A stretch of DNA of 64,000 nucleotides from an uncultured Gammaproteobacteria bacterium (GCA_964355275.1 CAYHCB010000001.1:1532-65531); one strand, 5' to 3'; shown: positions 772 through 52,906, counted from the first letter of the stretch. Translations and numbers: made by a program. Notes: generated by a model from the sequence alone, not told the origin.

Positions 772-3309
772 ATGTCTAATCAAAAAGAAGCAAGCGCAAG
801 AATAAAAATTAACAAATTACTTGAAGAGTCCGGATGGCGCTTTGAAGACAATAAAAACGGGAAGGCCAATATTCAATTAGAGCCTGGGGTAAAATATTCT
901 GATCTTGGTGATGATTTTGAAAATGAAGCCCATGGGTTTATTGATTTTTTATTATTAGATAAAGACGGACGCGCACTTGTAGTTGTAGAGGCTAAAAAAG
1001 AATCCATTGATCCATTATCAGCTAAAGAGCAGGCTAGAAACTATGCTCGTAATGCAGGTGCTCGATTTGTTATTCTTTCAAACGGTAATATTCACTATTT
1101 TTGGGACACTAAACACGGTAATCCTGATACTATTTCTCGTTTTCCAACCCAAGAATCTATAACGCAATATGAAAAATATACCCCTAATCCTGCGGAACTA
1201 GCCCAAACAGTTGTTGATGAAAATTACATAGTGGCTACGCAAATTCCAAACTTTGCAGAAGACCCAGCTTTTCAAGACGAATCGACTCGTGAAGAATTTT
1301 TAAAAAATAATAAGCTCAAACAACTCCGCCCATACCAAGTACAAGCAATAAAAGCATTGCAACAAGCCGCCCAAGAAGAGAAGCAAAGATTTTTATTTGA
1401 AATGGCCACTGGAACTGGTAAGACTTTAATTTCAGCTGCTGTTATTAAATTATTTCTTAAATCTGGCAATGCTCGTCGTGTGCTTTTTTTAGTAGACAGA
1501 CTTGAACTTGAAGATCAAGCACAAAAGGCTTTTGTCCATTATTTAGGCAAAGATTTTAGAAGTGTGATATATAAAGAAAATAGAGATTCATGGTCAAACG
1601 CCAGTATTGTTGTTTCTACTATACAAACATTTTTAGCTGGTGACAGATATAAAAAAGAATTTTCTCCTACCGATTTTGAATTAGTAATTTCTGATGAGGC
1701 CCATCGTTCTATCGGGGGTAATAGTCGTGCAGTTTTTGAATATTTTGTTGGTTATAAACTTGGTCTAACAGCTACACCAAAAAATTATTTAAGAGGCTTT
1801 GATGCTGAAGGCGCGGATAGCCAAAGGGAATATGAACGCAGACTTTTAGTAGACACTTATAAAACTTTTGGCTGCGAATCCGGAAATCCCACTTTTTCTT
1901 ATGACTTAGAAAAAGGGGCAGAAGAAGGCTATCTTATTAAGCCTACTCTTGTTGATGCGCGCACTAATATCACCACCAAACTTCTTTCTGAGGAGGGTTA
2001 TGCTGTTCACACTTTAACTGAAAGTGGAGAAACTATCGATGAGATATTTAATGAGCGTCACTATGAACGTAAAATTTTCAACGAAGAAACAGATATTGCC
2101 ATGTGTAAGGCACTTATGGATAATGGTCTTTTTGACCCAGTTGCTAAACAGCTTGGCGTAGATCTTTTTGGAAAAACAATTGTCTTTGCTGTATCACAAA
2201 AACATGCAGCGAGACTTACAAATATCTTAAATAAAATTGCTTTTGAAAAATGGCCCGACCAATATAGTGAATCAAATTTTGCCATGCAAGTTTCTTCTCA
2301 AGTTGCCAATGCGCAACAAATGACTATTAATTTTGCGAACAATCGCCTTGGTGGACAAGCTAACCATCCTGAAGGATATGATACAAGTAAAACTCGTGTG
2401 GCAGTTACAGTAGGCATGATGACTACCGGATATGATTGCCAAGACTTACTTAATATCGCTTTAATGCGTCCAGTTTTTAGCCCGACAGATTTTGTTCAGA
2501 TAAAAGGACGAGGCACAAGAAAATGGCAATTTGAATATAACGATTATAACAATGACCCAATTATTGAACCAAAAGAAAAGTTTAAATTTTTTGATTTTTT
2601 TGCTACTTGTGAATATTTTGAAAATGAATTTCCATATGATGAAAAAATAAAAATAGCTAAAATTGCCGCTGGCGTTATAACTGATCCGCCAGTTCCTGGT
2701 AATGGCATTGAACCACCTATTTCGCCCGCTAATACACCAATTGACCTAGCCACTTCTGATGAATTAGCTACAATTTCAGAAACGCCAGAAGGAGTAATTA
2801 TGCGTATTGATCGCGAAGGCTTTAGACGCGCCGTAGAAGAAGATGTCTTAGGAAATGAGACTCTTAAAAATATGTGGGATAATGGTGACACAGAGGAGGC
2901 TGAAAATTTTGCTAAAAAGAATATTTTTGATAAGCCAAAGTATTTTCTTAATTTGGATAAAATTAAAAAGATTTTTGGTATTGACCGCAGAATTACCGTG
3001 AAAGAATTTTTACAGGTTGCTTTTGGTGATAAAGATTCTTTTGAAATGAAGGACGAACTTTTAGAATCAGAATGGGAAAAATTCACTGAAGTAAATCCAG
3101 TTGACCAGCAGCATTATAAAGTAGTAAAAATGTTTTTTAAGGCATATTGCACTGATGAAAAGGTTCGGGAAATTATTGCCAGTCGACAAACAGCTAGATT
3201 CTATACCGAGTCATCTTTTCGTTTTGATGAATACCAAGAATTAAATGGTTTTAAAATTATTATTCCTCAATATATTCGTGATTACGCTTATCACTTAACA
3301 AATTTGTAA
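772..3309 (+). CDS. hsdR: type I restriction enzyme R subunit (HsdR; N-terminal PD-(D/E)xK nuclease plus SF2 helicase)
   Basis: 845 aa. The N-terminus KINKLLEESGWRF ... IDFLLLD ... VVVEAKK is the HsdR_N nuclease motif. Helicase motifs are I MATGTGKT, II SDEAHRS, III LGLTATP and VI QIKGRGTR. It sits immediately upstream of the methylase/specificity gene. Confidence 0.9.
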   Translation: MSNQKEASARIKINKLLEESGWRFEDNKNGKANIQLEPGVKYSDLGDDFENEAHGFIDFLLLDKDGRALVVVEAKKESIDPLSAKEQARNYARNAGARFVILSNGNIHYFWDTKHGNPDTISRFPTQESITQYEKYTPNPAELAQTVVDENYIVATQIPNFAEDPAFQDESTREEFLKNNKLKQLRPYQVQAIKALQQAAQEEKQRFLFEMATGTGKTLISAAVIKLFLKSGNARRVLFLVDRLELEDQAQKAFVHYLGKDFRSVIYKENRDSWSNASIVVSTIQTFLAGDRYKKEFSPTDFELVISDEAHRSIGGNSRAVFEYFVGYKLGLTATPKNYLRGFDAEGADSQREYERRLLVDTYKTFGCESGNPTFSYDLEKGAEEGYLIKPTLVDARTNITTKLLSEEGYAVHTLTESGETIDEIFNERHYERKIFNEETDIAMCKALMDNGLFDPVAKQLGVDLFGKTIVFAVSQKHAARLTNILNKIAFEKWPDQYSESNFAMQVSSQVANAQQMTINFANNRLGGQANHPEGYDTSKTRVAVTVGMMTTGYDCQDLLNIALMRPVFSPTDFVQIKGRGTRKWQFEYNDYNNDPIIEPKEKFKFFDFFATCEYFENEFPYDEKIKIAKIAAGVITDPPVPGNGIEPPISPANTPIDLATSDELATISETPEGVIMRIDREGFRRAVEEDVLGNETLKNMWDNGDTEEAENFAKKNIFDKPKYFLNLDKIKKIFGIDRRITVKEFLQVAFGDKDSFEMKDELLESEWEKFTEVNPVDQQHYKVVKMFFKAYCTDEKVREIIASRQTARFYTESSFRFDEYQELNGFKIIIPQYIRDYAYHLTNL

Positions 3310-3313
3310 AAAT

Positions 3314-5719
3314 ATGAATACAGATACAAAAAGACATATAGATTCCGCACGACAAGTATTGGTTGGAGTAGTACCTAATCCAACATCTCAGATTGATCAA
3401 ATCACTAATGCCTTGATTTACAAGTTTATGGACGATATGGATCAAGCCGCTATCAAACAAGGTGATGAACCATCTTTTTTTGTTGGCGATTTAGAATTGT
3501 ATGCCTGGACACGACTAATGGATCCTCGCATGGGCAATCAAGAACGAATGAATCTGTATTCAGAAGCTTTAATAAAATTTTCTCAAGCCAAGCAACTTCC
3601 TGAGCTGTTCCGTGGTATTTTTAAATCAGCCTTTTTACCATATCGTTCCCCGGAAACTTTAGGGCTGTTTCTAAAAGAAATTAACTATTTTGATTATTCG
3701 CACCCCGAAGAGCTCGGCAATGCTTATGAATATCTATTATCAATAATGTCTTCGCAGGGTGATGCCGGACAATTCCGCACCCCGCGCCATATAATTGATT
3801 TTATTGTTGACATTGTTAATCCAACTAAAGATGATAAAGTTCTTGATCCTGCTTGCGGAACGGGTGGCTTTTTAGTTAGTTCATATACGCATATCTTAGA
3901 ACAACATGATGGCAAAGATGACCCAGAAAAGAAAGAAAAACCACTAACGCCAGATGAACGTAAAAAATTAATGGCTAATTTTGAGGGGTATGATATCGAC
4001 CCGACAATGGTGCGTATTGCGCAGGTTAATATGTATCTGCACCAATTTAAGAATCCAAAAATTTATCAATATGATTCTCTTTCTAGCGAAGAACGTTGGA
4101 ATGATAAATTTGACGTTATTCTTGCTAATCCGCCATTTATGTCGCCAAAAGGAGGTATTAAGCCACATAGCAAATTCAGTATTCCTTCAAGTAGAAGTGA
4201 GGTCCTTTTTGTAGATTACATAATGAATCATTTGCGACCAAAAGGTCGTGCTGGCATAATTGTCCCAGAAGGAATCATTTTCCAATCAGGTAACGCACAT
4301 AAAGAGCTTCGCAAAAATTTAGTTAATGATGGCCTGTATGCCGTGGTTAGTTTGCCGTCTGGTGTATTTGCGCCATATAGTGGAGTAAAGACTAGTATCT
4401 TACTTTTCAATAACGAACTAGCAAAAACAAGTCAAGAAATTTTGTTTGTAAAAATAGAAAATGACGGTTTGAGCCTTGGAGCACAAAGACGGGAAATTCA
4501 AAAAAACGATCTACCACAAGCACTTGTTGTTTTGAATAAGTGGAACACGGGAGAAAAAGTAGAAAGCAAACTTGCGGTGTATGTAGAAAAATCAAAAATC
4601 GCCGAGAACGGCGACTTTAATCTTTCTATTGACCGTTATCGCATAACGACTGATTACACAAATGCCAAATGGCCGATGGTAAAACTGGGTGATATTTGTG
4701 AATTTGTTGGGAAAGGTGGCCGACCTGCGTCTTTTGCTACCGAAAATGGGAAGATTCCATTTATCGTTTCTTCATCGTTTGAAAAAAAATGTGATTCTGC
4801 TGATTTCGATATAGAAGCATTGATAATTGGCGATGGAGGATCGGCAAATATTCACTACATAAATGGAAGATTTTCAGCCTCTGACCATACTTATGTTTTA
4901 AAAAACAAAAATGAAGAAACAGTGTCGTTGGAATATATTTATGGACTGATATTAAATAATTTGGAAATAATTGAAAAAGGATTTCAAGGGCAAGGTCTAA
5001 AAAATGTTTCAAAAAAGTACTTAGAGTCTATTGAAGTGCCCCTTCCTCCTCTCGAAATCCAAGAGCAAATCGTGGCGGAGCTAGACAACTACTCAGGAAT
5101 CATCGACGGTGCCAAACAAATTGTACAAAATTGGAAACCAAAAATTGAGATTGATCCGAAGTGGGAGAAGGTTAAGTTGGATAAACTAGTTTCTTTTTCG
5201 CAAGGCGTTCAAGTAGATTTAGAAGATCAATTAAAAACGCCGACCAAGGACTATGAGAAGTTTTTGCGCATTGAGAATTACACTCAAAATTCAGGCGATT
5301 TTAGATATATCCCTAAAAAGATGGGGCGAGAAAAATTTGTAACAAAAGACGATGTCGTTGTTGTTAGATATGGTGCATCGGCTGGATTTATTGGTCGTGG
5401 ATTGGATGGTATTTTGGCAAATAATTTATTTTTAGTAACACCAGAAATAAAAGAACTTGATAAAAGCTATCTTTTCCATTATCTAAATTCTGATTTAGCA
5501 CAAACTTATTTAAAGCAAGCTATGGCTGGTGGGGCTATGCCAGCACTTAGTTTTGGTATTGTCAAAGAGTTAGAAATTGTTATTCCCCCTCTTACCACTC
5601 AAACACAGATCGTAGAAAAAATTGAAGCCGAACGCACTCTAGTCGAATCCGCAAAGAAGCTTATTAGCATTTATGAAAAAGAAACTAAAAAAACAATAAC
5701 TAAACTTCTGGAAGAATAA
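3314..5719 (+). CDS. hsdM: type I R-M N6-adenine DNA methyltransferase fused to a complete two-TRD specificity (HsdS) module
   Basis: 801 aa. It has an HsdM_N-like N-terminus, SAM motif VLDPACGTGGFL and catalytic motif ILANPPFMSP. From about residue 455 there are two target-recognition domains, each opening W(P/E)xVKL (WPMVKLGDICEF, WEKVKLDKLVSF). These are separated and followed by coiled-coil conserved regions (LEIQEQIVAELD, LTTQTQIVEKIEAE). Confidence 0.88.
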   Translation: MNTDTKRHIDSARQVLVGVVPNPTSQIDQITNALIYKFMDDMDQAAIKQGDEPSFFVGDLELYAWTRLMDPRMGNQERMNLYSEALIKFSQAKQLPELFRGIFKSAFLPYRSPETLGLFLKEINYFDYSHPEELGNAYEYLLSIMSSQGDAGQFRTPRHIIDFIVDIVNPTKDDKVLDPACGTGGFLVSSYTHILEQHDGKDDPEKKEKPLTPDERKKLMANFEGYDIDPTMVRIAQVNMYLHQFKNPKIYQYDSLSSEERWNDKFDVILANPPFMSPKGGIKPHSKFSIPSSRSEVLFVDYIMNHLRPKGRAGIIVPEGIIFQSGNAHKELRKNLVNDGLYAVVSLPSGVFAPYSGVKTSILLFNNELAKTSQEILFVKIENDGLSLGAQRREIQKNDLPQALVVLNKWNTGEKVESKLAVYVEKSKIAENGDFNLSIDRYRITTDYTNAKWPMVKLGDICEFVGKGGRPASFATENGKIPFIVSSSFEKKCDSADFDIEALIIGDGGSANIHYINGRFSASDHTYVLKNKNEETVSLEYIYGLILNNLEIIEKGFQGQGLKNVSKKYLESIEVPLPPLEIQEQIVAELDNYSGIIDGAKQIVQNWKPKIEIDPKWEKVKLDKLVSFSQGVQVDLEDQLKTPTKDYEKFLRIENYTQNSGDFRYIPKKMGREKFVTKDDVVVVRYGASAGFIGRGLDGILANNLFLVTPEIKELDKSYLFHYLNSDLAQTYLKQAMAGGAMPALSFGIVKELEIVIPPLTTQTQIVEKIEAERTLVESAKKLISIYEKETKKTITKLLEE

Positions 5720-9665: not shown

Positions 9666-10019
9666 ATGAGTATTCAATTTAAACCATTTCAAATTGAGAG
9701 ACCTTGGGGTTATTTTCGTCAATTTTCCAAAAATACACCCTCAACAGTAAAAATTATCAGGGTTAAACCAAACGAAATACTCAGTTTACAAAACCATGCT
9801 CAGCGTGAAGAGTTTTGGCATTTTATTTCTGGTACCGGTGTAGCCGAAATTAATGGAGAAAAAATAAATGTCAAAACTAGTGACGAACTAACGGTCCCTC
9901 TTGGTGCAAAACATCGTTTAGCGGCTGGTAATTTAGGATTAGAAGTTCTGGAAATTTCCTATGGTGAATTTAATGAGGATGACATTATTCGTTACGAAGA
10001 TAAATATAAAAGAATATAA
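9666..10019 (+). CDS. cupin-domain protein (type II phosphomannose isomerase C-terminal-like)
   Basis: 117 aa. RPWGYFRQF ... LSLQNHAQREEFWHFISG ... GAKHRL matches the cupin motifs of the mannose-6-phosphate isomerase type II family. Confidence 0.7.
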   Translation: MSIQFKPFQIERPWGYFRQFSKNTPSTVKIIRVKPNEILSLQNHAQREEFWHFISGTGVAEINGEKINVKTSDELTVPLGAKHRLAAGNLGLEVLEISYGEFNEDDIIRYEDKYKRI

Positions 10020-10022
10020 AAT

Positions 10023-11051
10023 ATGTTTAAATTAAAAAGACAGGGTGCTGGACCAGTTTTAAGGCCAGACAACACTTTACCCTGGGAAAGAGCTGGTGTT
10101 TTTAATCCTGGAGTTGCCATGTTTGATAAAGAAATATATTTACTTTATCGAGCTGTTGGCGAAACAAAAGCCTATATTTCTCATCTTGGTTTAGCCAGGA
10201 GCACAGATGGTATAAATTTTGAACGGGTTTCACATAATCCCGTTTTTGGACCCAAAGAAAAATTTGATAAATGGGGAGTAGAAGATCCGCGAATTACAAA
10301 AATTGGTGATGATTTTTATATAACTTATGTGGCTGTTTCTAAAAGAATTATGAAAGACGGAATATCTGTTAAGCGTTTTTTACCCTTAGAAACATCGGCC
10401 GCCCTACTTAAAACTAAAGATTTTATATCTTATACTAACCTAGGGATAATTTCATCGCCAAATTCTGATAATAAAAATACTACTATATTTCCTAGACTTA
10501 TAAATGGTCGATATTATATGTTACATCGACCAAATTATTGGTCTAAGGAATGGTTTAGGGGGCCATATGAAAAATATATTGAAGAAGGCTTGCCTTGTGA
10601 TGTTGAAAAATTGCCAGAAACTCCTGGCATTTGGATAGCATCCTCAAATAATCTAAAAAAATGGACAGATCATCGTTTACTCATAGCTCCAACTGATAAA
10701 TTTGATGCAAAAATTGGACCAGGTTTACCACCAATTGAAACTGAAGCCGGTTGGTTGCTTATTTATCATCATGTTAAAAAAGATGAAACAACTAATTACC
10801 TTACATACTCAACACGAGCGGCTCTTTTAGATATTAACGACCCAACAGTTTTAATCGCTAAATTAAATTACGACATTTTATCTCCAGAGATGCCTTATGA
10901 AATAGAACGAGAAACAAAAATTGTTTTTCCTACTGGTGGTTTTGTAAAAGATGATACTTTATATGTTTATTATGGCGCCTCTGACCGTTACGTTTGTTTG
11001 GCCACCGGCTCACTTAGTGCGCTTTTAAGTGAATTAAAAAAATTCTATTAG
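10023..11051 (+). CDS. GH130-family glycoside phosphorylase/hydrolase (beta-mannoside phosphorylase-like)
   Basis: 342 aa. GVFNPGVA ... LLYRAVG ... LARSTDGINF ... WGVEDPRITKIGDDFYITY ... YYGASD are hallmark GH130 (DUF377) blocks. Confidence 0.85.
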   Translation: MFKLKRQGAGPVLRPDNTLPWERAGVFNPGVAMFDKEIYLLYRAVGETKAYISHLGLARSTDGINFERVSHNPVFGPKEKFDKWGVEDPRITKIGDDFYITYVAVSKRIMKDGISVKRFLPLETSAALLKTKDFISYTNLGIISSPNSDNKNTTIFPRLINGRYYMLHRPNYWSKEWFRGPYEKYIEEGLPCDVEKLPETPGIWIASSNNLKKWTDHRLLIAPTDKFDAKIGPGLPPIETEAGWLLIYHHVKKDETTNYLTYSTRAALLDINDPTVLIAKLNYDILSPEMPYEIERETKIVFPTGGFVKDDTLYVYYGASDRYVCLATGSLSALLSELKKFY

Positions 11052-11076
11052 ATTATTAATTAAGTTCAAAAAATTT

Positions 11077-13302
11077 ATGAGTCAGTCTCATGAAAAAATA
11101 TGGATAGTTTTTTTATCTACCTATCCGCCAAGAGAATGTGGTATTGCTACGTTTACTTCTGATTTGTTAAAAAATTTTGATAAATTATTTGTGCCTCGTG
11201 AAGAGGCTAAAGTAGTAGCGATTGATAATACTAAATTGCAAACTTACAATTATCCAGCAAAAGTAATTTTTAGAATATCTGAAAATCAACCAAACGATTA
11301 TTTAGAGGTAGCCAAAAAACTTAATGCCATGCCTCATGTAAAATTAATTTCCATTCAACATGAATTTGGTATTTTTGGTGCTGATTATGGAAAAAATATT
11401 TTAATATTTTTAAAAGAAATAAAAAAACCAGTAGTTGTTACTTTTCACACAGTTTTACCTAATCCAGTTAAAGAACTTAAAAGTATGGTTGTAAATATTG
11501 CTAAATATGCCGATCGGATTAATGTTATGACTTGCAACTCTAAGGAGATATTGACGCAAGCTTATGGTTTAACTAAAAATAAAATAAAAATTATTCCTCA
11601 CGGAATCCATTCTTTATTATATAATGACGGCTCGGAAGCTAGATTACTACTAAAGCTTAAAGGTAAAAGAGTGATAACTACTTTTGGTTTACTAAATCGA
11701 GGAAAGGGAATTGAGTATGCGATTGCCGCTTTGCCTAAAATTGTCGCGGCTTATCCTAATATTGTATATTTAGTAATAGGGGCTACTCATCCAGTGGTGC
11801 TTAAAGAAAAAGGAGAGCAGTATCGTGATGAACTAACCGAACTAGCTTATAAACTAGGAGTACAAGATAATATTTTATTTTATAATGAATATTTACCAAC
11901 TGATAAGTTGCTAAAATTTTTACAAGCTACAGAAATTTATTTATCTTTATCGCAAAATCCAGACCAAGCTGTTTCTGGTACTTTAACTTATGCTCTGGGG
12001 GCTGGTCGGCCAGTTATTTCTACTCCTTTTGCTCAAGCTAAAGAGATTCTTACTAAAGAATTAGGAGTATTAATAAAATTTAATGATAGTAGTAGCATCA
12101 CCAAAGAAGTAATTGCCTTACTTAGTGACAAAGAGCGTTTAACTAATATGAGCCGAACAGCATATTTTAGGACCAGAGGCATGACTTGGCCAAATGTAGT
12201 TTTGTCCTATATGGAGGAATTTACTGAGTTATCACCCGAATTATCTAAAAAAGAAAAAAATTTACCAAAAATTATATTAAAACATTTACGTAAACTGACT
12301 GACGATTTTGGTATTTATCAATTTGCAATTTTAAATGAACCAGATCCAAGTTGGGGGTACACCTTAGACGATAATGCTAGAGCTTTAGTCGTGGCAGCTC
12401 TTTATTATTCTCCTAATAATAGTCAATTAAATAAGCATTTAGCCGAAGTTTATTTAAATTTTTTAGAATTAGCAACAAAAAATAAAAGTGGTTTTATAAA
12501 TTATTTTACCAGTGAAAGAAAACCTCACTTAGACCGTAATTTAAAAGAAAATTTAGAAGATGCGGAGGCTCGTGCTCTCTGGTCTCTAGCGACGGTAGTA
12601 AATAGTAAATTACCGATAAAGTTAAAAAAACGAGCAATCTTAATACTTAATAAATATTGTGAATCTTTTCAAAATGTAAAATCTCCGAGGGCGGTTGCTT
12701 TTCATATTAAAGCCCTTTACAATTGGCTACTTTTTAATAATAGCGAGCAAACAAAAACATTGTTGATTTCGCATGCCGATTTTTTACTTGATAGATTTAA
12801 TGATAACGCCACAGAAGATTGGCAGTGGTTTGAACAATCTTTAACTTACTCTAATGCTGTATTAGCTGAAGCCATGTTACTAGCTTATAAAGTTACTGGC
12901 AATTATCTCTACTTTAAAGCTGGAAAAACAACCCTTGATTTCTTAATTGATCAATCTTTTTGTGGTGATATTTGCGAGCCAGTAGGACAAAGTGGTTGGT
13001 TTAAGAGGGGGCAAAAAAAGAAAAATTATGATCAGCAACCAGAAGAAGTATCATCGCTAGTATCAGCTCTTAGGGTTATGTATGATTTAAGCGATAACCT
13101 TGGTTATTATAAAAAAATGTTAAAAGTTTTTAGTTGGTTTTTGGGTAATAACTTACTTAATCAAATGGTTTACTCTCAGCTAACCGGAGGTTGTTATGAC
13201 GGCGTAGGCAAAAAAGAAATAAATTTAAATCAAGGAGCTGAGTCAACGATTTCATATCTATTAGCTCGTCTGGCTATCGATAAAAAACGCAAATGGCAAT
13301 AA
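11077..13302 (+). CDS. GT4-family glycosyltransferase with a roughly 330-aa C-terminal extension of unknown function
   Basis: 741 aa. The N-terminal 390 aa are GT-B/GT4-like (ISIQHEFGIFG, TFGLLNRGKGIEY, GTLTYALGAGRPVISTPFAQAKE). I do not recognise the C-terminal half. Confidence 0.8.
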   Translation: MSQSHEKIWIVFLSTYPPRECGIATFTSDLLKNFDKLFVPREEAKVVAIDNTKLQTYNYPAKVIFRISENQPNDYLEVAKKLNAMPHVKLISIQHEFGIFGADYGKNILIFLKEIKKPVVVTFHTVLPNPVKELKSMVVNIAKYADRINVMTCNSKEILTQAYGLTKNKIKIIPHGIHSLLYNDGSEARLLLKLKGKRVITTFGLLNRGKGIEYAIAALPKIVAAYPNIVYLVIGATHPVVLKEKGEQYRDELTELAYKLGVQDNILFYNEYLPTDKLLKFLQATEIYLSLSQNPDQAVSGTLTYALGAGRPVISTPFAQAKEILTKELGVLIKFNDSSSITKEVIALLSDKERLTNMSRTAYFRTRGMTWPNVVLSYMEEFTELSPELSKKEKNLPKIILKHLRKLTDDFGIYQFAILNEPDPSWGYTLDDNARALVVAALYYSPNNSQLNKHLAEVYLNFLELATKNKSGFINYFTSERKPHLDRNLKENLEDAEARALWSLATVVNSKLPIKLKKRAILILNKYCESFQNVKSPRAVAFHIKALYNWLLFNNSEQTKTLLISHADFLLDRFNDNATEDWQWFEQSLTYSNAVLAEAMLLAYKVTGNYLYFKAGKTTLDFLIDQSFCGDICEPVGQSGWFKRGQKKKNYDQQPEEVSSLVSALRVMYDLSDNLGYYKKMLKVFSWFLGNNLLNQMVYSQLTGGCYDGVGKKEINLNQGAESTISYLLARLAIDKKRKWQ

Positions 13303-46701: not shown

Positions 46702-47088
46702 ATGGATATCAATTCATTTGATAGATTTTATAATACTAATCCCAAGCAATTCGAACACAATCCGATAAACTCCAATGATAGAGCTTTGCTACGTGATGCT
46801 GAAAATAAAATTAAAATTTTAGATAATTTTTTGTTTAGTGGTGACATAATTAGCGATTATAACTATTTTTTAGAAATAACCAGTCGTAATATTAACTACA
46901 AAAAAGCAACTAACGAGCAGAAAGAAGAGTTAGTAAAAAACCTGGAAAGTATTTTAAGTTCTTTACTGAAAAATCAAGATGAAAAAATAAATACTACTAA
47001 TACTAGTGAAGCTAATAAAATGTTTTACGAAGAATTACCAAAAGCTGAAATAAATGTAATAGAGAAATTAGTAAAATTTTATCAATAA
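46702..47088 (+). CDS. hypothetical protein
   Basis: 128-aa ORF with no recognisable motif, followed by a weak hairpin plus T-run. Confidence 0.5.
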   Translation: MDINSFDRFYNTNPKQFEHNPINSNDRALLRDAENKIKILDNFLFSGDIISDYNYFLEITSRNINYKKATNEQKEELVKNLESILSSLLKNQDEKINTTNTSEANKMFYEELPKAEINVIEKLVKFYQ

Positions 47089-47174: not shown

Positions 47175-49055
47175 ATGGAGAAACTATTTAAATTAAAATC
47201 TGACTTTGTGCCCGCCGGTGATCAGCCAAGTGCAATCACTAAGCTTAAGAGTGGCTTAACTAAAAATTTTGATTTTCAAACATTATTAGGAGTAACTGGA
47301 TCAGGAAAAACTTTTACTATTGCCAATATAATTAAAGATATAGATAAACCAGTGCTAGTTATGGCACCAAATAAAGCCCTGGCCGCTCAATTATATAGAG
47401 AATACAAAAATTTCTTTCCAGGTAACGCTGTTCATTACTTTGTTTCTTATTATGATTATTATCAGCCAGAAGCTTATTTACCAATTACCGACACTTATAT
47501 TGATAAAGAATCAATGATAAACGACGAGATTGATCGTTTACGTCACGGAGCAACATCAGCCTTAATGAGTCGTCGTGATGTAATTATTGTGGCCTCAGTA
47601 TCCTGTATTTATAATCTTGGTGTGCCTGATAACTATTTAGAATCGAGATTACATCTTAGTAAAGAACAAGAAATCGTTCGAACAGATTTAATAAGACAAC
47701 TTATTAAAATTCAGTTTAAAAGAACCACTGGCGATACTAAACGCGGCGAATTTCGGGTTCGTGGTGATGTTTTTGAAATAAGACCAATGTCTGAAAATGT
47801 AATTTATAGAATTGAACTTAAGAATCAAAAAATTGAATCTCTTTCTATTATTGATCATACCACCAGACAGGTACTGGAAGACTTGCCGGAAATTGTGGTT
47901 TTTCCACCAAAACATTTTGTATCCAGCCAACCGCAAATTGAATCTGCTATTAAAAACATTAAAGAAGAATTACACGATCGTTTAACATATTTTAGAAGTG
48001 AGGGCTTACTATTAGAGGCTGAACGTTTAGAACGTCGCACTCGATATGATTTAGAAATGATAAAAAGTTTAGGTTTTTGTCATGGGATTGAAAATTACTC
48101 CCGTCATTTATCTGGTAAATTAGCCGGAGAAGCGCCCGATTCATTACTTGCTTATTTTCCTAAAAAAAATGGTAAACCAGATTTTCTAACCATCATTGAT
48201 GAGTCTCATATTAGTGTGCCTCAAGTTAGAGGAATGTATAATGGCGACCAAGCACGAAAAAAAAATTTAACGCAGTATGGTTGGCGACTACCATCTGCTT
48301 TAGATAACAGACCGCTTAAGTTCAAAGAATTTGAACAGCGCTTAGGTAATGTAATCTTTACAACTGCTACTCCAGGGGATTATGAGATTACTCATTCCAA
48401 GCAAGTAGTTGAACAAGTTATTCGTCCAACCGGTTTAGTTGACCCTGAAATTGAAATTCGCCCAGTTTTTAGAAAAGAAGATAATTACAGTCAAATCAAA
48501 GATATCACTGAAGAATCTAAACGACTGGCAGCTAAGGGCGAAAGAGTGATTATAAATACTTTAACTAAAAAACAAGCCGAAGATTTAAATATTTACCTTG
48601 GTAAACAAGGATTAAAAAGTAATTACTTACACTCCGATATCAAAACTTTTGAACGTACCGAAATTATAAAAAATTTTCGTGAAGGCTTATTTGATGTTTT
48701 AATCGGCGTAAATTTACTGCGTGAAGGCTTGGATCTGCCAGAGGTCACTCTAGTAGCCATTTTAGATGCCGACAGAGAAGGTTTTTTACGCAGTCAAACA
48801 TCTCTAATGCAAACTATGGGTCGGGCCGCTCGTAATGTTAGTGGTAAAATTATTTTATACGCTGATAAAATTACTAATTCCATTAAACTAGCGACCGAGG
48901 AGGTAAATAGAAGACGAATAAAACAATTAGCTTATAATAAAAAATATAATATCACTCCAAAAACAATCATTAAAAAAATTGAGGATTTTTTAGAAATCAG
49001 CCCCGAAGGAAGAGTGGAAATGCAAAAAAATAAAAAAGTTATGAAAAAAAGATAA
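47175..49055 (+). CDS. uvrB: excinuclease ABC subunit B (lacking the C-terminal UVR domain)
   Basis: 626 aa. It has QTLLGVTGSGKTFT, DESHISVPQ, ATPGDYE, GVNLLREGLDLPEV and MGRAARN. The protein ends about 20 aa after the YNKKYNITPKTI block, with no FE.AA..RD UVR motif. Confidence 0.9.
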   Translation: MEKLFKLKSDFVPAGDQPSAITKLKSGLTKNFDFQTLLGVTGSGKTFTIANIIKDIDKPVLVMAPNKALAAQLYREYKNFFPGNAVHYFVSYYDYYQPEAYLPITDTYIDKESMINDEIDRLRHGATSALMSRRDVIIVASVSCIYNLGVPDNYLESRLHLSKEQEIVRTDLIRQLIKIQFKRTTGDTKRGEFRVRGDVFEIRPMSENVIYRIELKNQKIESLSIIDHTTRQVLEDLPEIVVFPPKHFVSSQPQIESAIKNIKEELHDRLTYFRSEGLLLEAERLERRTRYDLEMIKSLGFCHGIENYSRHLSGKLAGEAPDSLLAYFPKKNGKPDFLTIIDESHISVPQVRGMYNGDQARKKNLTQYGWRLPSALDNRPLKFKEFEQRLGNVIFTTATPGDYEITHSKQVVEQVIRPTGLVDPEIEIRPVFRKEDNYSQIKDITEESKRLAAKGERVIINTLTKKQAEDLNIYLGKQGLKSNYLHSDIKTFERTEIIKNFREGLFDVLIGVNLLREGLDLPEVTLVAILDADREGFLRSQTSLMQTMGRAARNVSGKIILYADKITNSIKLATEEVNRRRIKQLAYNKKYNITPKTIIKKIEDFLEISPEGRVEMQKNKKVMKKR

Positions 49056-49067
49056 AAATTAGCTAAT

Positions 49068-51566
49068 ATGGAAGATAAAATAATAATTAAGGGTGCTAAA
49101 ATGCACAACTTAAAAAATATTAATTTAGAAATACCTCATAATACTTTAACAGTAATTACCGGTGTTTCTGGGTCTGGTAAATCATCACTGGCTTTTGATA
49201 CTATTTTTGCTGAAGGACAGCGCCAATACGTTGAATCTTTGTCGCCTTATATGCGTCAATTTTTAGGACAGAAAAAACCAGCTGATGTTGATGAAATAAT
49301 TGGCCTGGCTCCAGCTATTTCAATTGATCAAAAAGCTTTGTCGCATAATCCACGTTCAACAGTGGGAACACTAACTGAAATTCATGATTACTTAAGAATT
49401 TTATATGCTCGGGTTGGTGAGATATTTTGTCCAGAATGTGGCACGAAAATAGAAAAGTTAACTCTTGAGGAAATGGTAGATATTATTATTACTCGAGCCA
49501 AAGAAAATAAAGATGAATTTGTGGAAATTTTAAGCCCAGTAGTACGCGATCGTAAAGGAGAATATTATCAACTCTTATACAATTATTTAAATCAGGGATA
49601 TAACGAGTCACGAGTTGATGGTATTTATCATTTTTTACGTGATGAAATAAAACTTACCGCGACCAAAAAACATAGCATTGATATCGTAATTGATAAAGTA
49701 ATGATTACTGACGAAACAAGACTGTTTGAGGCAGTTGAAAATTCGCTGGCTTATTCTGGTGGATTAGTAATTACTAAATTTTCTAAACAAGAATTTTTAT
49801 TATCTTCTAACTGGACTTGTCCTAATGATAGTTTTGCTTTTCCCGAAGTAGAACCTCGGCTTTTTTCTTTTAACTCACCACATGGCGCTTGCCCAGAATG
49901 TACTGGACTAGGTAAAATTGGTTACTTCGCAGAAAAAGATTGTCCAGCTTGCAAAGGTAAGCGTTTACGCCCCGAAGCTTTATCTGTTAAAGTTTATAAT
50001 AAAAATTTAGCCGAAGTGAGTAATTTAGCTCTTGATAATTTGCGTGATTTTTTCTGGCAATACTATCAAAAAATGACAAAACGAGAGCTAACGATTGCGG
50101 AAAATGTAATTGGCCAAATTTTAAATCGTTTAGAATTTTTAAATAAAGTCGGCTTAAACTATTTATCACTTGATAGGGAAGCGGAAACATTATCCGGCGG
50201 AGAGGCCCAGAGAATTCGTTTATCATCTCAAATAGGATCACAATTATCTCGAACTCTTTATGTTCTTGACGAACCAACTATTGGACTTCACGAACGTGAT
50301 ACTGATCGTTTGATTGAAACATTGCAAACTCTAAGGGATAAAAATAATACAGTTATAATAGTTGAACACGACGAACGAACAATTTTAGCTTCTGATTATT
50401 TAGTTGACATAGGACCACTAGCCGGAGTCCATGGTGGCGAAATAATGGCTATTGGAAATACTAAAAAATTATTAACTGACAAAAAAGCGCTAGAAAAATC
50501 TTTAACGCTTCAATATCTATCAGGTTTGAAAAAAATTGAAATTCCTCAAAAAAGAAGAACTAAAAATAGTGGATTTCTAAAAATTATTGGTGCCAGGGCA
50601 AATAATTTAAAAAATATCAAAGTAGATATACCCCTAGGACGCTTAGTAGGAATTAGTGGTGTGTCCGGATCAGGTAAATCGTCGCTTCTTTACGATGTGC
50701 TGTACAAAAATATTAATCACATAAAGGCTAGACCAGGAAAAGCTAAATTAGAAGATGTAAACGAAATAAAAGGCACGGAATATATAAATAAGGTAGTAGT
50801 TATTGATCAATCTCCGATTGGTCGTTCACCAAGATCTAATCCGGCAACTTATACTGGTTTTTTTACTCCAATTAGAGAATTTTTTGCCGCCCTACCGGAA
50901 TCGAAAGAACGTGGTTACACTATTTCACGTTTCTCTTTTAATCGTCCCGGCGGACGCTGTGAGGCCTGCCAAGGGGCTGGTTTTAATCTAATTGAAATGC
51001 ATTTTTTACCAGCCATTTCGGTTGAATGTGAGGTTTGCCATGGTCAAAGATTTAACCGTGAAACATTACAAGTAAAATATAAAGGGAAAAGTATTGCTGA
51101 AGTTTTAAATATGACGATTGAAGAAGCAATAGTTTTATTTGATGGTAATTACTTTATCACTGATAAACTAAGAGTTCTAGAGTCTGTTGGTTTAGGTTAT
51201 ATAAAACTTGGACAATCATCCACCACTTTATCAGGTGGTGAAGCGCAGCGTATTAAAATTGCCAAAGAGTTAACTATGACTTTAGGAAAAAGAACCCTTT
51301 ATTTACTAGACGAGCCGACCACGGGTTTGCATTATAAAGATATTGAAATGTTACTGGTGGTTTTAAACAAATTAGTAGACAGAGGTAATTCCGTCTTAAT
51401 TATTGAGCATAATCTACATATGTTAAAATCGATGGATTATATCATTGATATGGGACCAGAAGGCGGTGATAAAGGTGGAAAAATTTTAGCCTTTGGAGAG
51501 CCAGAAGATATTATAAGAGTAGAGAAGAGTATAACTGGTAAATACCTAAAAGAATACTTAAAATAG
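49068..51566 (+). CDS. uvrA: excinuclease ABC subunit A (lacking the insertion domain)
   Basis: 832 aa with two ABC modules (GVSGSGKSSLAFDT, LSGGEAQRIRL, YVLDEPTIGLH; GVSGSGKSSLLYD, LSGGEAQRIKI, YLLDEPTTGLH). The Zn motifs CPECTGLG and CPACKGKRL are only 10 aa apart. Canonical UvrA, as I remember it, has about 110 aa there. Confidence 0.9.
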   Translation: MEDKIIIKGAKMHNLKNINLEIPHNTLTVITGVSGSGKSSLAFDTIFAEGQRQYVESLSPYMRQFLGQKKPADVDEIIGLAPAISIDQKALSHNPRSTVGTLTEIHDYLRILYARVGEIFCPECGTKIEKLTLEEMVDIIITRAKENKDEFVEILSPVVRDRKGEYYQLLYNYLNQGYNESRVDGIYHFLRDEIKLTATKKHSIDIVIDKVMITDETRLFEAVENSLAYSGGLVITKFSKQEFLLSSNWTCPNDSFAFPEVEPRLFSFNSPHGACPECTGLGKIGYFAEKDCPACKGKRLRPEALSVKVYNKNLAEVSNLALDNLRDFFWQYYQKMTKRELTIAENVIGQILNRLEFLNKVGLNYLSLDREAETLSGGEAQRIRLSSQIGSQLSRTLYVLDEPTIGLHERDTDRLIETLQTLRDKNNTVIIVEHDERTILASDYLVDIGPLAGVHGGEIMAIGNTKKLLTDKKALEKSLTLQYLSGLKKIEIPQKRRTKNSGFLKIIGARANNLKNIKVDIPLGRLVGISGVSGSGKSSLLYDVLYKNINHIKARPGKAKLEDVNEIKGTEYINKVVVIDQSPIGRSPRSNPATYTGFFTPIREFFAALPESKERGYTISRFSFNRPGGRCEACQGAGFNLIEMHFLPAISVECEVCHGQRFNRETLQVKYKGKSIAEVLNMTIEEAIVLFDGNYFITDKLRVLESVGLGYIKLGQSSTTLSGGEAQRIKIAKELTMTLGKRTLYLLDEPTTGLHYKDIEMLLVVLNKLVDRGNSVLIIEHNLHMLKSMDYIIDMGPEGGDKGGKILAFGEPEDIIRVEKSITGKYLKEYLK

Positions 51567-51727
51567 AAAAAAGGCCAGTTTACATTGTGTAAACTGACCT
51601 TAAAGCAAGGGGCAAAAGAAAGAGAAATGGAAACAAAAGGTAATGTAATATATGGAGTTAATTACTTAACTAAGATTAATTGTTCAACCCAGGTTAAGTA
51701 CTTAAAGTATAGCTAAACTATATTTAT

Positions 51728-52906
51728 ATGTCAATAGCAGTACATCCAATCAAAAATAAACTAAAAGAAATGCCAAATGTTCCAGGTGTTTATTTTTGGT
51801 TAGATAAAAATAATCAAGTTCTTTATGTTGGTCGTGCTACTAATCTTAAAAATCGTCTAAGCCAATATTTTCAAAAAAATATTGAATCACGTATCGCTGA
51901 AATGGTTAGTCAGGCTAAAGATTTACGTTATTTAATTTGCGAAAACTTACTAGAAGCAATTATTCTAGAAGCTAAATACATAAAAGAATACTGGCCAAAA
52001 TATAATGTGGTAGACCGTGATAATCGTTCTTTTATTTATATTGTTATCACGCAAGGCAGTTACCCTAAGCCAATTATTATCAGAGGCCAAGATTTAAAAA
52101 AATTTCCCGAAACTAAAGCTAAGATATTTGGGCCATACCAATCAAGGACTTTAATAAATAATGCTCTTCGTTTGATTAGGCCAATTTTTCCCTGGAGTAA
52201 TTGCGTACCAGAATCCGGTAAAGCCTGTTTTGACTACCAAATAGGACTATGTCCTGGTGCCTGCATTAAAAGTATCTCCGTAAAAGATTATAAAAAAAAT
52301 ATCGAAAACTTGTCCATGTTTCTTAGTGGCGATAAAAAAAGATTAATAAAAAAACTAGAGAAAGAAAATCCTAATCAAATTAAAGCTTTAAAGCACATAC
52401 AAGATGTTTCGCTGTTTGCCAGGGAAGATAATTTAAAAGAAAAAAAATTAAATCGAATTGAAGGTTATGACATTTCTCATCTAAACGGCAAAGAATCATA
52501 TGGGTCTATGGTAGTTTTTTCTAATGGGGAAGCAGATAAAAATGAATATCGACTGTTTAAGATTAAAGAAGCGCCAGAGGGAGATGATGAGCGAGCTTTA
52601 AGTGAAATTTTATTACGTCGTTTTAATCATAAAGAGTGGCCTTATCCTGATTTAATTATGATCGATGGTGGGTCACCTCAAATATCTTTTATTTCTAAAT
52701 TTTTAGCAAAAAATAATATCGCTGTTCCTATTGTTGGTATTTCTAAATTTGCTGGTGATAAATTAATTTTTAGTAAAGAAACCAAGCAAAACTTTAAAGA
52801 TTTAGCTAAAAATATCAAACCAACTCTTCTAAAAATACGTGAAGAGGCTCATCGTTTTGCCAATTTCGGTAGAAAAAGAGGAGCTAATAATAAATTTAAA
52901 TTTTAA
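51728..52906 (+). CDS. uvrC: excinuclease ABC subunit C, truncated form (GIY-YIG plus RNase H-like endonuclease domain; no UVR or (HhH)2 domain)
   Basis: 392 aa. GIY-YIG is GVYFWLDKNNQVLYVGRATNLKNRLSQY. It also has FGPYQS ... CFDYQIGLCPGAC, RIEGYDISH, IMIDGG and IREEAHRFAN. It ends about 15 aa after EAHRFA. As I remember it, the canonical protein is about 600 aa. Confidence 0.85.
   Translation: MSIAVHPIKNKLKEMPNVPGVYFWLDKNNQVLYVGRATNLKNRLSQYFQKNIESRIAEMVSQAKDLRYLICENLLEAIILEAKYIKEYWPKYNVVDRDNRSFIYIVITQGSYPKPIIIRGQDLKKFPETKAKIFGPYQSRTLINNALRLIRPIFPWSNCVPESGKACFDYQIGLCPGACIKSISVKDYKKNIENLSMFLSGDKKRLIKKLEKENPNQIKALKHIQDVSLFAREDNLKEKKLNRIEGYDISHLNGKESYGSMVVFSNGEADKNEYRLFKIKEAPEGDDERALSEILLRRFNHKEWPYPDLIMIDGGSPQISFISKFLAKNNIAVPIVGISKFAGDKLIFSKETKQNFKDLAKNIKPTLLKIREEAHRFANFGRKRGANNKFKF

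Follow-up and report, generated by a model that had tools for sequence, protein, structure and literature searches.

In the canonical UvrABC systems of nucleotide excision repair (NER), described for E. coli, Geobacillus/Bacillus, Thermotoga, Deinococcus and Mycobacterium, four modules have been given important or essential roles by mutagenesis and structural studies, namely the insertion domain of UvrA, the UVR hairpins through which UvrB (domain 4, which also serves dimerisation) and UvrC bind each other, and two domains of UvrC, the inactive RNase H1 domain at its centre and (HhH)2 at its C-terminus. Damage-specific contacts of UvrA are provided by its signature domain II and Zn3 hairpin, domain 4 of UvrB is auto-inhibitory with respect to ATPase activity (PMC7835731), and the RNase H1 domain was proposed to be a platform that keeps UvrC closed and inactive (Seck et al. 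2023; PMC10085695). A very large bacterial radiation, the Patescibacteria or candidate phyla radiation (CPR), appears to manage, under strong selection, without some or all of these modules. The locus considered here is a contiguous uvrB-uvrA-uvrC cluster at positions 47175-52906 of a stretch of 64,000 nucleotides (GCA_964355275.1 CAYHCB010000001.1:1532-65531; hereafter the window, meaning this whole stretch at its full length), and it is quite probably a functional, streamlined NER operon of Candidatus Falkowbacteria-like Patescibacteria from which the modules were lost in nested steps.

The three proteins of the window are orthologous to their canonical counterparts, scoring above the NCBIfam equivalog cut-offs, and the cores with ATPase, helicase and nuclease function, the domains by which UvrA and UvrB interact and the catalytic residues are the same in both sets. 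In contrast to the canonical systems, the window lacks the insertion domain of UvrA, domain 4 of UvrB, and the UVR core, RNase H1 and (HhH)2 domains of UvrC, and its three genes form one cluster. They are arranged head-to-tail on the plus strand in the order uvrB (47175..49055), uvrA (49068..51566) and uvrC (51728..52906), and the analysis of open reading frames (ORFs) returned exactly the protein lengths (626, 832 and 392 aa, respectively) and spacers (12 and 161 nt) that had been given in an earlier note made from the sequence alone. The same note had claimed that UvrB lacks its C-terminal UVR domain, that UvrA lacks the insertion domain and keeps the UvrB-binding domain, and that UvrC keeps the GIY-YIG domain, the Cys-rich region and the RNase H core; all of this is borne out below. 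Alignments with the proteins of E. coli, G. stearothermophilus and T. maritima, a comparison that the note had proposed, placed the losses precisely and found the domains to be absent. As a control, E. coli UvrA, UvrB and UvrC showed every missing family in an identical Pfam scan.

UvrB matches NF003673, an NCBIfam equivalog, with 912.8 bits (cut-off 743) over profile positions 2-606 of 653. Its Pfam scan returned UvrB_inter, Helicase_C and PF12344, and the UVR family (PF02151) was not found. The UvrA-interacting domain 2 is thus kept (PF17757, E = 1.1e-23; residues 159-248, 47649..47918, plus strand), and the Walker A motif GVTGSGKT and the beta-hairpin motif YYDYYQPEAY are identical to those of solved UvrB structures. 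The alignment stops at about residue 600 of 661 in the best full-length chains, 9gy7_E and B. subtilis 2d7d, with residues 5-600 aligned to 9gy7_E in the Protein Data Bank. What follows PF12344 is a basic tail of 24 residues (residues 603-626, EDFLEISPEGRVEMQKNKKVMKKR; 48981..49052, plus strand), which was found to be unconserved and devoid of a UVR motif when the tails of related loci were compared. It gave no match to a UVR profile built from five canonical proteins (E. coli and four others) to the exclusion of Patescibacteria sequences.

UvrA scored 1194.6 bits against NF001503 (cut-off 1147), the match being split in two and passing over profile positions ~286-402, and 1132.9 bits against TIGR00630 (cut-off 729.8). 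Two ABC ATPase modules are evident from the Walker A motif GVSGSGKS at residues 32 and 531 and LSGGE at residues 375 and 721. The UvrB-binding domain (UvrA_inter, PF17760, E = 9.1e-22) is present at residues 132-238 (49461..49781, plus strand), and UvrA_DNA-bind (PF17755) was not found by the Pfam scan. In the structural alignment, the step from residue 283 to residue 286 spans the insertion domain of G. stearothermophilus UvrA (2r6f; residues 303-417). The zinc module II region accordingly comprises 27 residues as compared with 139 in E. coli, about 112 residues of insertion domain being gone, and the site of the gap is the short CPEC-TGLGKIGYFAEKD-CPAC junction (49890..49952, plus strand), located by the alignment and by its length. 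An AlphaFold2 (AF2) model of the protein (pLDDT 79.6; TM-score 0.80-0.83 to the class I structures 2r6f, 3uwx and 3zqj) shows zinc module II closed as a compact knuckle. In zinc module I, the window protein has three Cys plus an Asp (C121/C124 and C251/D254); the second half of this module reads C-P-x-D rather than C-x-x-C in most UvrAs of Patescibacteria, and the E. coli module reads C-P-D-H plus C-P-I-C.

UvrC exceeds the cut-off of TIGR00194 (325.3 versus 285.45 bits) in two stretches, and its Pfam scan returned GIY-YIG and UvrC_RNaseH_dom only. The GIY-YIG domain, the 3'-incision nuclease (PF01541; residues 8-102, 51749..52033, plus strand), matches 1yd6 and 1ycz, the crystal structures of this domain being aligned over residues 8-102. 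The active RNase H-type 5'-incision domain (PF08459, E = 9.8e-37; residues 238-385, 52439..52882, plus strand) matches 2nrt and 8b0q; residues 242-385 lie on residues 23-161 of T. maritima 2nrt, with nothing aligned beyond. Between the two nucleases, C159, C167, C175 and C179 (52202..52264, plus strand) align with C154, C166, C174 and C178 of E. coli, a 4Fe-4S motif for which cluster binding is predicted.

With regard to what UvrC lacks, the earlier note was right in part. It had listed the UVR and (HhH)2 domains, and (HhH)2 is indeed absent, as the Pfam scan found no HHH family match and the protein ends 7 residues past the RNase H domain. What it had overlooked is the inactive RNase H1 domain in the middle of UvrC (PF22920), which is absent from the Pfam scan, the alignment and the model, and which is the largest loss: when aligned with full-length UvrCs from E. 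coli and elsewhere, the protein is seen to lack this domain and its linker (E. coli ~240-380) entirely, whereas UVR and (HhH)2 explain only ~75 of the ~218 residues missing. As for the UVR region, which was said to be unrecognizable, a core of 15 residues (M..A...L.FE.AA..R) has been deleted, but a shortened helical hairpin (residues 203-222) is left within the remnant at residues 200-233 (SGDKKRLIKKLEKENPNQIKALKHIQDVSLFARE; 52325..52426, plus strand), as seen from the alignments and the model, and the UVR profile score is -3.6 bits. The AF2 model (mean pLDDT 90.1) consists of the GIY-YIG domain, a small beta motif, a shortened helical bundle (helices 185-199, 203-213, 215-222 and 227-233) and, after a linker that is short and flexible, the RNase H domain, and its Foldseek matches were confined to UvrC GIY-YIG, UvrC's C-terminal half and EndoV folds.

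The taxonomic distribution of these reductions was studied in 80 loci of ~20 kb each, obtained by scanning one genome per GTDB species with short UvrCs, aligned, as the query. These loci are the ones closest to the UvrC of the window and not a census of the phylum; all are Patescibacteria, spanning Falkow-, Komeili-, Buchanan-, Uhr-, Magasanik-, Moran-, Adler-, Kaiser-, Campbell-, Yonath-, Shapiro- and Zambryskii-bacteria as well as Saccharibacteria and Nanosyncoccus. The large alignments (MAFFT, fast settings) are approximate outside conserved blocks, and the trees are neighbour-joining (NJ) trees computed on them. All 80 UvrCs are short (355-495 aa), lack RNase H1 (PF22920) and HhH, and have tails of 0-32 residues past the RNase H domain. 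At a wider scale, the nearest 150 representatives of UvrC clusters at 50% identity were typed with UVR, RNase H1 and HhH profiles made from canonical sequences, whereby 135 proved to be without RNase H1 and HhH and 7 to be canonical. Five others (P0399, P0440, P0447, P0461 and P0482; 474-503 aa) retain UVR and (HhH)2 and lack RNase H1, which suggests that the loss of RNase H1 can precede that of HhH. Several of the short UvrCs are named merely "GIY-YIG nuclease family protein" by the NCBI pipeline, a warning for annotation.

The reduced architecture is common to all of the 120 closest cluster representatives listed for each protein, none of which contains PF02151, PF17755 or PF22920. These sequences are 68-92% identical to those of the window, apart from an exact match to its own UvrC, and have similar sizes (UvrC mostly 384-410 aa, UvrA mostly 821-854 aa, UvrB 608-641 aa); the close relatives are labelled Candidatus Falkowbacteria. 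Patescibacteria-type operons are also found under the record titles "uncultured Gammaproteobacteria bacterium" or "uncultured Candidatus Saccharibacteria bacterium" (L004, L011, L013, L017 and others), which are evident placeholder mislabels. An assembly or gene-calling artefact could be suspected in a metagenome-assembled contig such as this one, but protein lengths and junctions are identical across numerous independent assemblies (NCBI, ENA, JGI and Logan) and in the 80 GTDB species representatives, and the TAA stop codon of uvrB lies 12 nt ahead of the uvrA ATG, with no space in which an exon-like piece could have been lost. The contig itself, of 196 kb, is present in NCBI, ENA and Logan. 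The survey of relatives that had been proposed to settle this point found the reduced forms to be shared, and an artefact is considered to be extremely improbable.

The insertion domain of UvrA was lost in 44 of the 53 loci with a full-length UvrA, many of which have kept UVR in both UvrB and UvrC. Zinc module II comprises exactly 27 residues (C..C.GLG-x9-C..C.G) in 43 related loci and 37 residues in one. The full insertion domain is kept in nine loci, of the Moranbacteria type and a few others, some of which have two UvrA paralogues; in L038, L040, L042 and L048 (Moranbacteria-type), which keep a full insertion domain, two full-length UvrA paralogues flank a uvrC gene that encodes a short protein. 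Cultivable Saccharibacteria have UVR and are without RNase H1 and HhH; no uvrA is contained in the loci from named isolates of this group.

The distribution of the UVR domains is more restricted, and the two partners follow each other without exception. Among the 36 loci with both uvrB and uvrC, the UVR profile score is at or below 0 bits in both proteins in 11, and it is positive in both in the other 25 (14-40 bits in UvrB and 8-38 bits in UvrC); there is no locus among them with UVR in one partner only. The claim that the UVR partners of UvrB and UvrC have been lost together is therefore upheld by 11 of 11 loci without the domain and 25 of 25 with it. UvrB proteins without UVR are encoded by L005, L006, L009-L014, L022, L076 and the window, and a clear LDFE.AA.LRDEI motif is seen in the remaining full-length UvrBs. 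The stop codons at which the short UvrBs end are genuine. With the exception of L076, the UVR-less set is monophyletic (48/50 NJ bootstraps for UvrC and 50/50 for UvrB), so that UVR loss is confined to a clade of Falkowbacteria/Komeilibacteria/Buchananbacteria type plus the separate lineage L076. In the trees the latter falls together with L058 and L062, in which UVR is present, L062 being its nearest relative for both proteins, and has uvrB on the minus strand (1754-3602) and uvrC at 9970-11260. Its UvrB ends at a TAA stop codon five residues past PF12344, and in its UvrC the UVR segment has kept its length and lost the motif. Recoding of UGA, as in Gracilibacteria, was considered as a cause of the short L076 UvrB and ruled out, the stop codon being TAA. 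A TGA stop codon was found in none of 10 long ORFs of L076, and an alternative genetic code is possible there. Judging from the trees, the UVR pair would have been lost jointly at least twice, the second event resting on L076 as one outlying locus. If so, it would provide a clean example of two interacting domains that were lost jointly, twice independently.

Because the loss of the insertion domain is common also where UVR is kept, the losses are nested and do not reflect the one coordinated event that the earlier note had proposed for all modules. In this series UvrC lost its RNase H1 platform and (HhH)2, as in all sampled Patescibacteria including the 80 loci; the UvrA insertion domain was cleanly excised in most lineages, with zinc module II being closed; and the mutually binding UVR hairpins of UvrB and UvrC were lost jointly as the latest step, in this clade and in one other lineage. 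The B-A-C gene order, which had been taken as atypical, is so with respect to E. coli, but uvrB, uvrA and uvrC lie in this order on one strand in 35 of the 36 related loci with uvrB, often with extra genes interposed. The clustered order is a lineage trait and not a peculiarity of this genome.

All three proteins are below canonical length and lack modules reported to be functionally important, which would fit a degenerating pathway, decaying under relaxed selection, that had been put forward as one explanation. The evidence for constraint speaks strongly against it. In comparison with the close relative L084, dN/dS is 0.044 for uvrB, 0.051 for uvrA and 0.106 for uvrC, versus 0.06-0.08 for neighbouring genes including flanking housekeeping genes, although dS of 1.2-1.8 is near saturation and these values are rough. 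Catalytic residues are invariant in all 80 short UvrCs, both in the GIY-YIG domain (Y22, Y33, R43, E81 and N93) and in the RNase H triad (D248, D313 and H375). In addition, the 120 listed representatives of each protein are equally reduced at 68-92% identity, and the deletion boundaries are clean and conserved, as exemplified by the 27-residue zinc module II. By these indications the genes of the operon are intact and constrained, with a complete set of catalytic residues, and degeneration is very improbable. The Cys-rich motif of UvrC is more variable in the 80-locus alignment, which is approximate in this region: the first motif Cys is kept in 30 of 80 sequences and the others in 57-66 of 80. 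Some lineages of Patescibacteria may have lost the iron-sulfur cluster of UvrC.

The contact pair between UvrA and UvrB (the UvrB-binding domain and domain 2) is kept, and the UVR pair between UvrB and UvrC is gone on both sides, which raises the question of how UvrC would act in a streamlined NER operon. In the mechanism proposed here, a UvrA dimer without insertion domains would sense the distortion via signature domain II and the Zn3 hairpin and would then load UvrB. UvrB lacking the auto-inhibitory domain 4 would perhaps be constitutively more active, and UvrC lacking the RNase H1 platform would probably be a permanently "open" enzyme. UvrC would get to the UvrB-DNA complex via contacts other than UVR, in the manner of E. 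coli Cho or of the UVR-independent 5' incision by canonical UvrC, maybe aided by its RNase H domain and by the DNA bubble itself, and would cut on the 3' side with GIY-YIG and on the 5' side with RNase H. A weaker affinity between the proteins may be offset by their co-expression from a single operon. That UvrC reaches UvrB-DNA without the UVR handshake is an inferred step, and UVR-independent action of UvrC is made plausible by the fact that Cho has no UVR and by a second contact with UvrB that is implied for full-length UvrC, since the latter binds UvrB more stably than its N-terminal half does (PMC10085695). Furthermore, UvrC-C cleaves 3'-nicked DNA with the UVR region absent, and without (HhH)2 the UvrC of D. 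radiodurans binds UvrB and DNA approximately as the wild type does and makes the 3' cut (PMC10085695). It is a serious, though tentative, possibility that all four modules (insertion domain, UVR handshake, RNase H1 platform and (HhH)2) are dispensable for excision repair and that the UVR-less UvrC is recruited via an undescribed interface. Canonical systems, too, may conceal such an alternative interface, or a mode in which the DNA bubble is recognized directly.

Several points weigh against the view of a streamlined NER operon. The missing parts matter in model organisms: the insertion domain of UvrA was described as essential for DNA coordination (PMC11985968), and loss of (HhH)2 in D. radiodurans UvrC impairs 5' incision (PMC10085695). 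A comparison aimed at a compensating UvrB-UvrC interface gave only clade-specific substitutions (W370, N461, R534 and M548 in UvrB; R36, W89 and L276 in UvrC), and a comparison of the window neighbours with all ORFs of at least 60 aa in the 80 loci revealed no conserved gene beside the operon that could encode an adaptor. The window covers 64 kb of the genome, and paralogues or modules acting in trans could lie elsewhere; the rough dN/dS values belong here as well.

Two further explanations take up these points. In the first, UvrC has been uncoupled or repurposed as a stand-alone structure-specific nuclease that no longer acts via UvrB, with UvrAB in some other role. Both proteins have lost the one contact between UvrB and UvrC that is well documented, the above comparison gave no replacement interface, and D. 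radiodurans UvrC alone binds DNA tightly (PMC10085695). On the other hand, uvrC stays in the same-strand uvrB-uvrA-uvrC array in the UVR-less clade, often directly adjacent, and constraint is equally strong on all three genes. Cho, likewise a GIY-YIG nuclease without UVR, can reportedly still depend on UvrB-DNA (Moolenaar et al. 2002). Uncoupling is regarded as unlikely. In the second, the missing modules are supplied in trans from elsewhere in the genome, for instance by an HhH DNA-binding protein or a UVR-like adaptor, as could be envisaged given that domain fission is common in reduced genomes. However, no second uvr gene (a check on paralogues that had also been suggested beforehand) was found in the 64-kb window, and its ORFs of at least 30 aa did not include a separate UVR, RNase H1 or HhH module either. 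Nor does a conserved extra gene accompany the operon in the related loci. A 128-aa ORF of no known function (46702..47088, plus strand) lies 86 nt upstream of uvrB. Its counterpart of 126 aa, at 55% identity, directly abuts uvrB in the closest relatives L084 and L085, and none was found among the 80 more distant loci. Supply in trans is quite unlikely, and the preferred explanation remains a functional, streamlined NER operon.

The 161-nt spacer between uvrA and uvrC (51567-51727) contains a hairpin with a perfect 14-bp stem just 3' of the uvrA stop codon (51571..51601, no strand assigned), with a run of T on the minus-strand side. RNA of the minus strand from 51700 to 51560 folds with -30.4 kcal/mol (z = -4.4), and a hairpin is found at the equivalent position in L084 and L085, the letters of its stem differing by compensatory changes. 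The hairpin looks like an intrinsic terminator of a minus-strand transcript; possible roles are termination of an antisense RNA over the start of uvrC or, alternatively, a terminator without a U-tract or a stabiliser for the uvrBA mRNA. A LexA-type operator was also considered for this palindrome after uvrA and set aside, in view of its hairpin behaviour and the compensatory changes in relatives. Elsewhere in the window, a SAM (S-box) riboswitch at 29332..29446 (plus strand; 60.3 bits, E = 1.8e-11) was the sole Rfam match.

A full-text literature search in an incomplete library found no published description of these reduced Uvr forms, and an earlier mention is possible. The closest parallels are provided by laboratory variants of the canonical proteins. 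UvrB*, the proteolytic form of E. coli UvrB without its C-terminal domain, and domain-4 deletion mutants resemble the window UvrB, which likewise ends soon after PF12344. E. coli UvrB without domain 4 reportedly does not support 3' incision by UvrC. In contrast to UvrB*, the truncation in the window is natural, conserved and paired with a deletion in UvrC. Similarly, the same modules are missing from engineered UvrA without the insertion domain (E. coli and G. stearothermophilus) and from D. radiodurans UvrC without (HhH)2. Deletion of the insertion domain reportedly lowers DNA binding and damage discrimination (Wagner et al. 2011; Pakotiprapha et al. 2008). The engineered deletions are impaired, whereas the natural versions in the window are under strong purifying selection, and this contrast with the impairment in model systems is what renders natural conserved versions informative. 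They amount to a natural experiment on which UvrABC contacts are truly required, and a natural minimal UvrABC would offer small, simple proteins for structures of the still unresolved UvrB-UvrC-DNA incision complex.

Among natural proteins, class II UvrAs (UvrA2, Ecm16 and DrrC) are similarly short (~830-840 aa); however, they lack the UvrB-binding domain and keep the insertion-domain region, and the window UvrA is the reverse. Its assignment to class II was rejected on this ground and by its identity of 44-51% to class I structures versus 32-34% to 2vf7 and 7sh1. Cho, which consists of GIY-YIG and a Cys-rich region, is a nuclease without UVR like the window UvrC (PMC10085695). The window UvrC differs from it in keeping the active C-terminal RNase H nuclease and in being the sole UvrC-like gene product of the operon, and an identification with Cho was dismissed on account of the RNase H nuclease and a score of 61.2 bits against the Cho model NF007833, whose cut-off is 367. 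A parallel trend is seen in the streamlined ribosomes of CPR bacteria, in which proteins and RNAs are shorter and peripheral, mutually adjacent surface elements are missing (PMC9297842). The fit with this general CPR trend lowers the surprise of reduced Uvr proteins, although the ribosome is another machine and the co-loss in the window hits a defined protein-protein interaction pair. The uvrB-uvrA-uvrC operon of the window is a natural variant within the UvrABC family and not a new kind of system.

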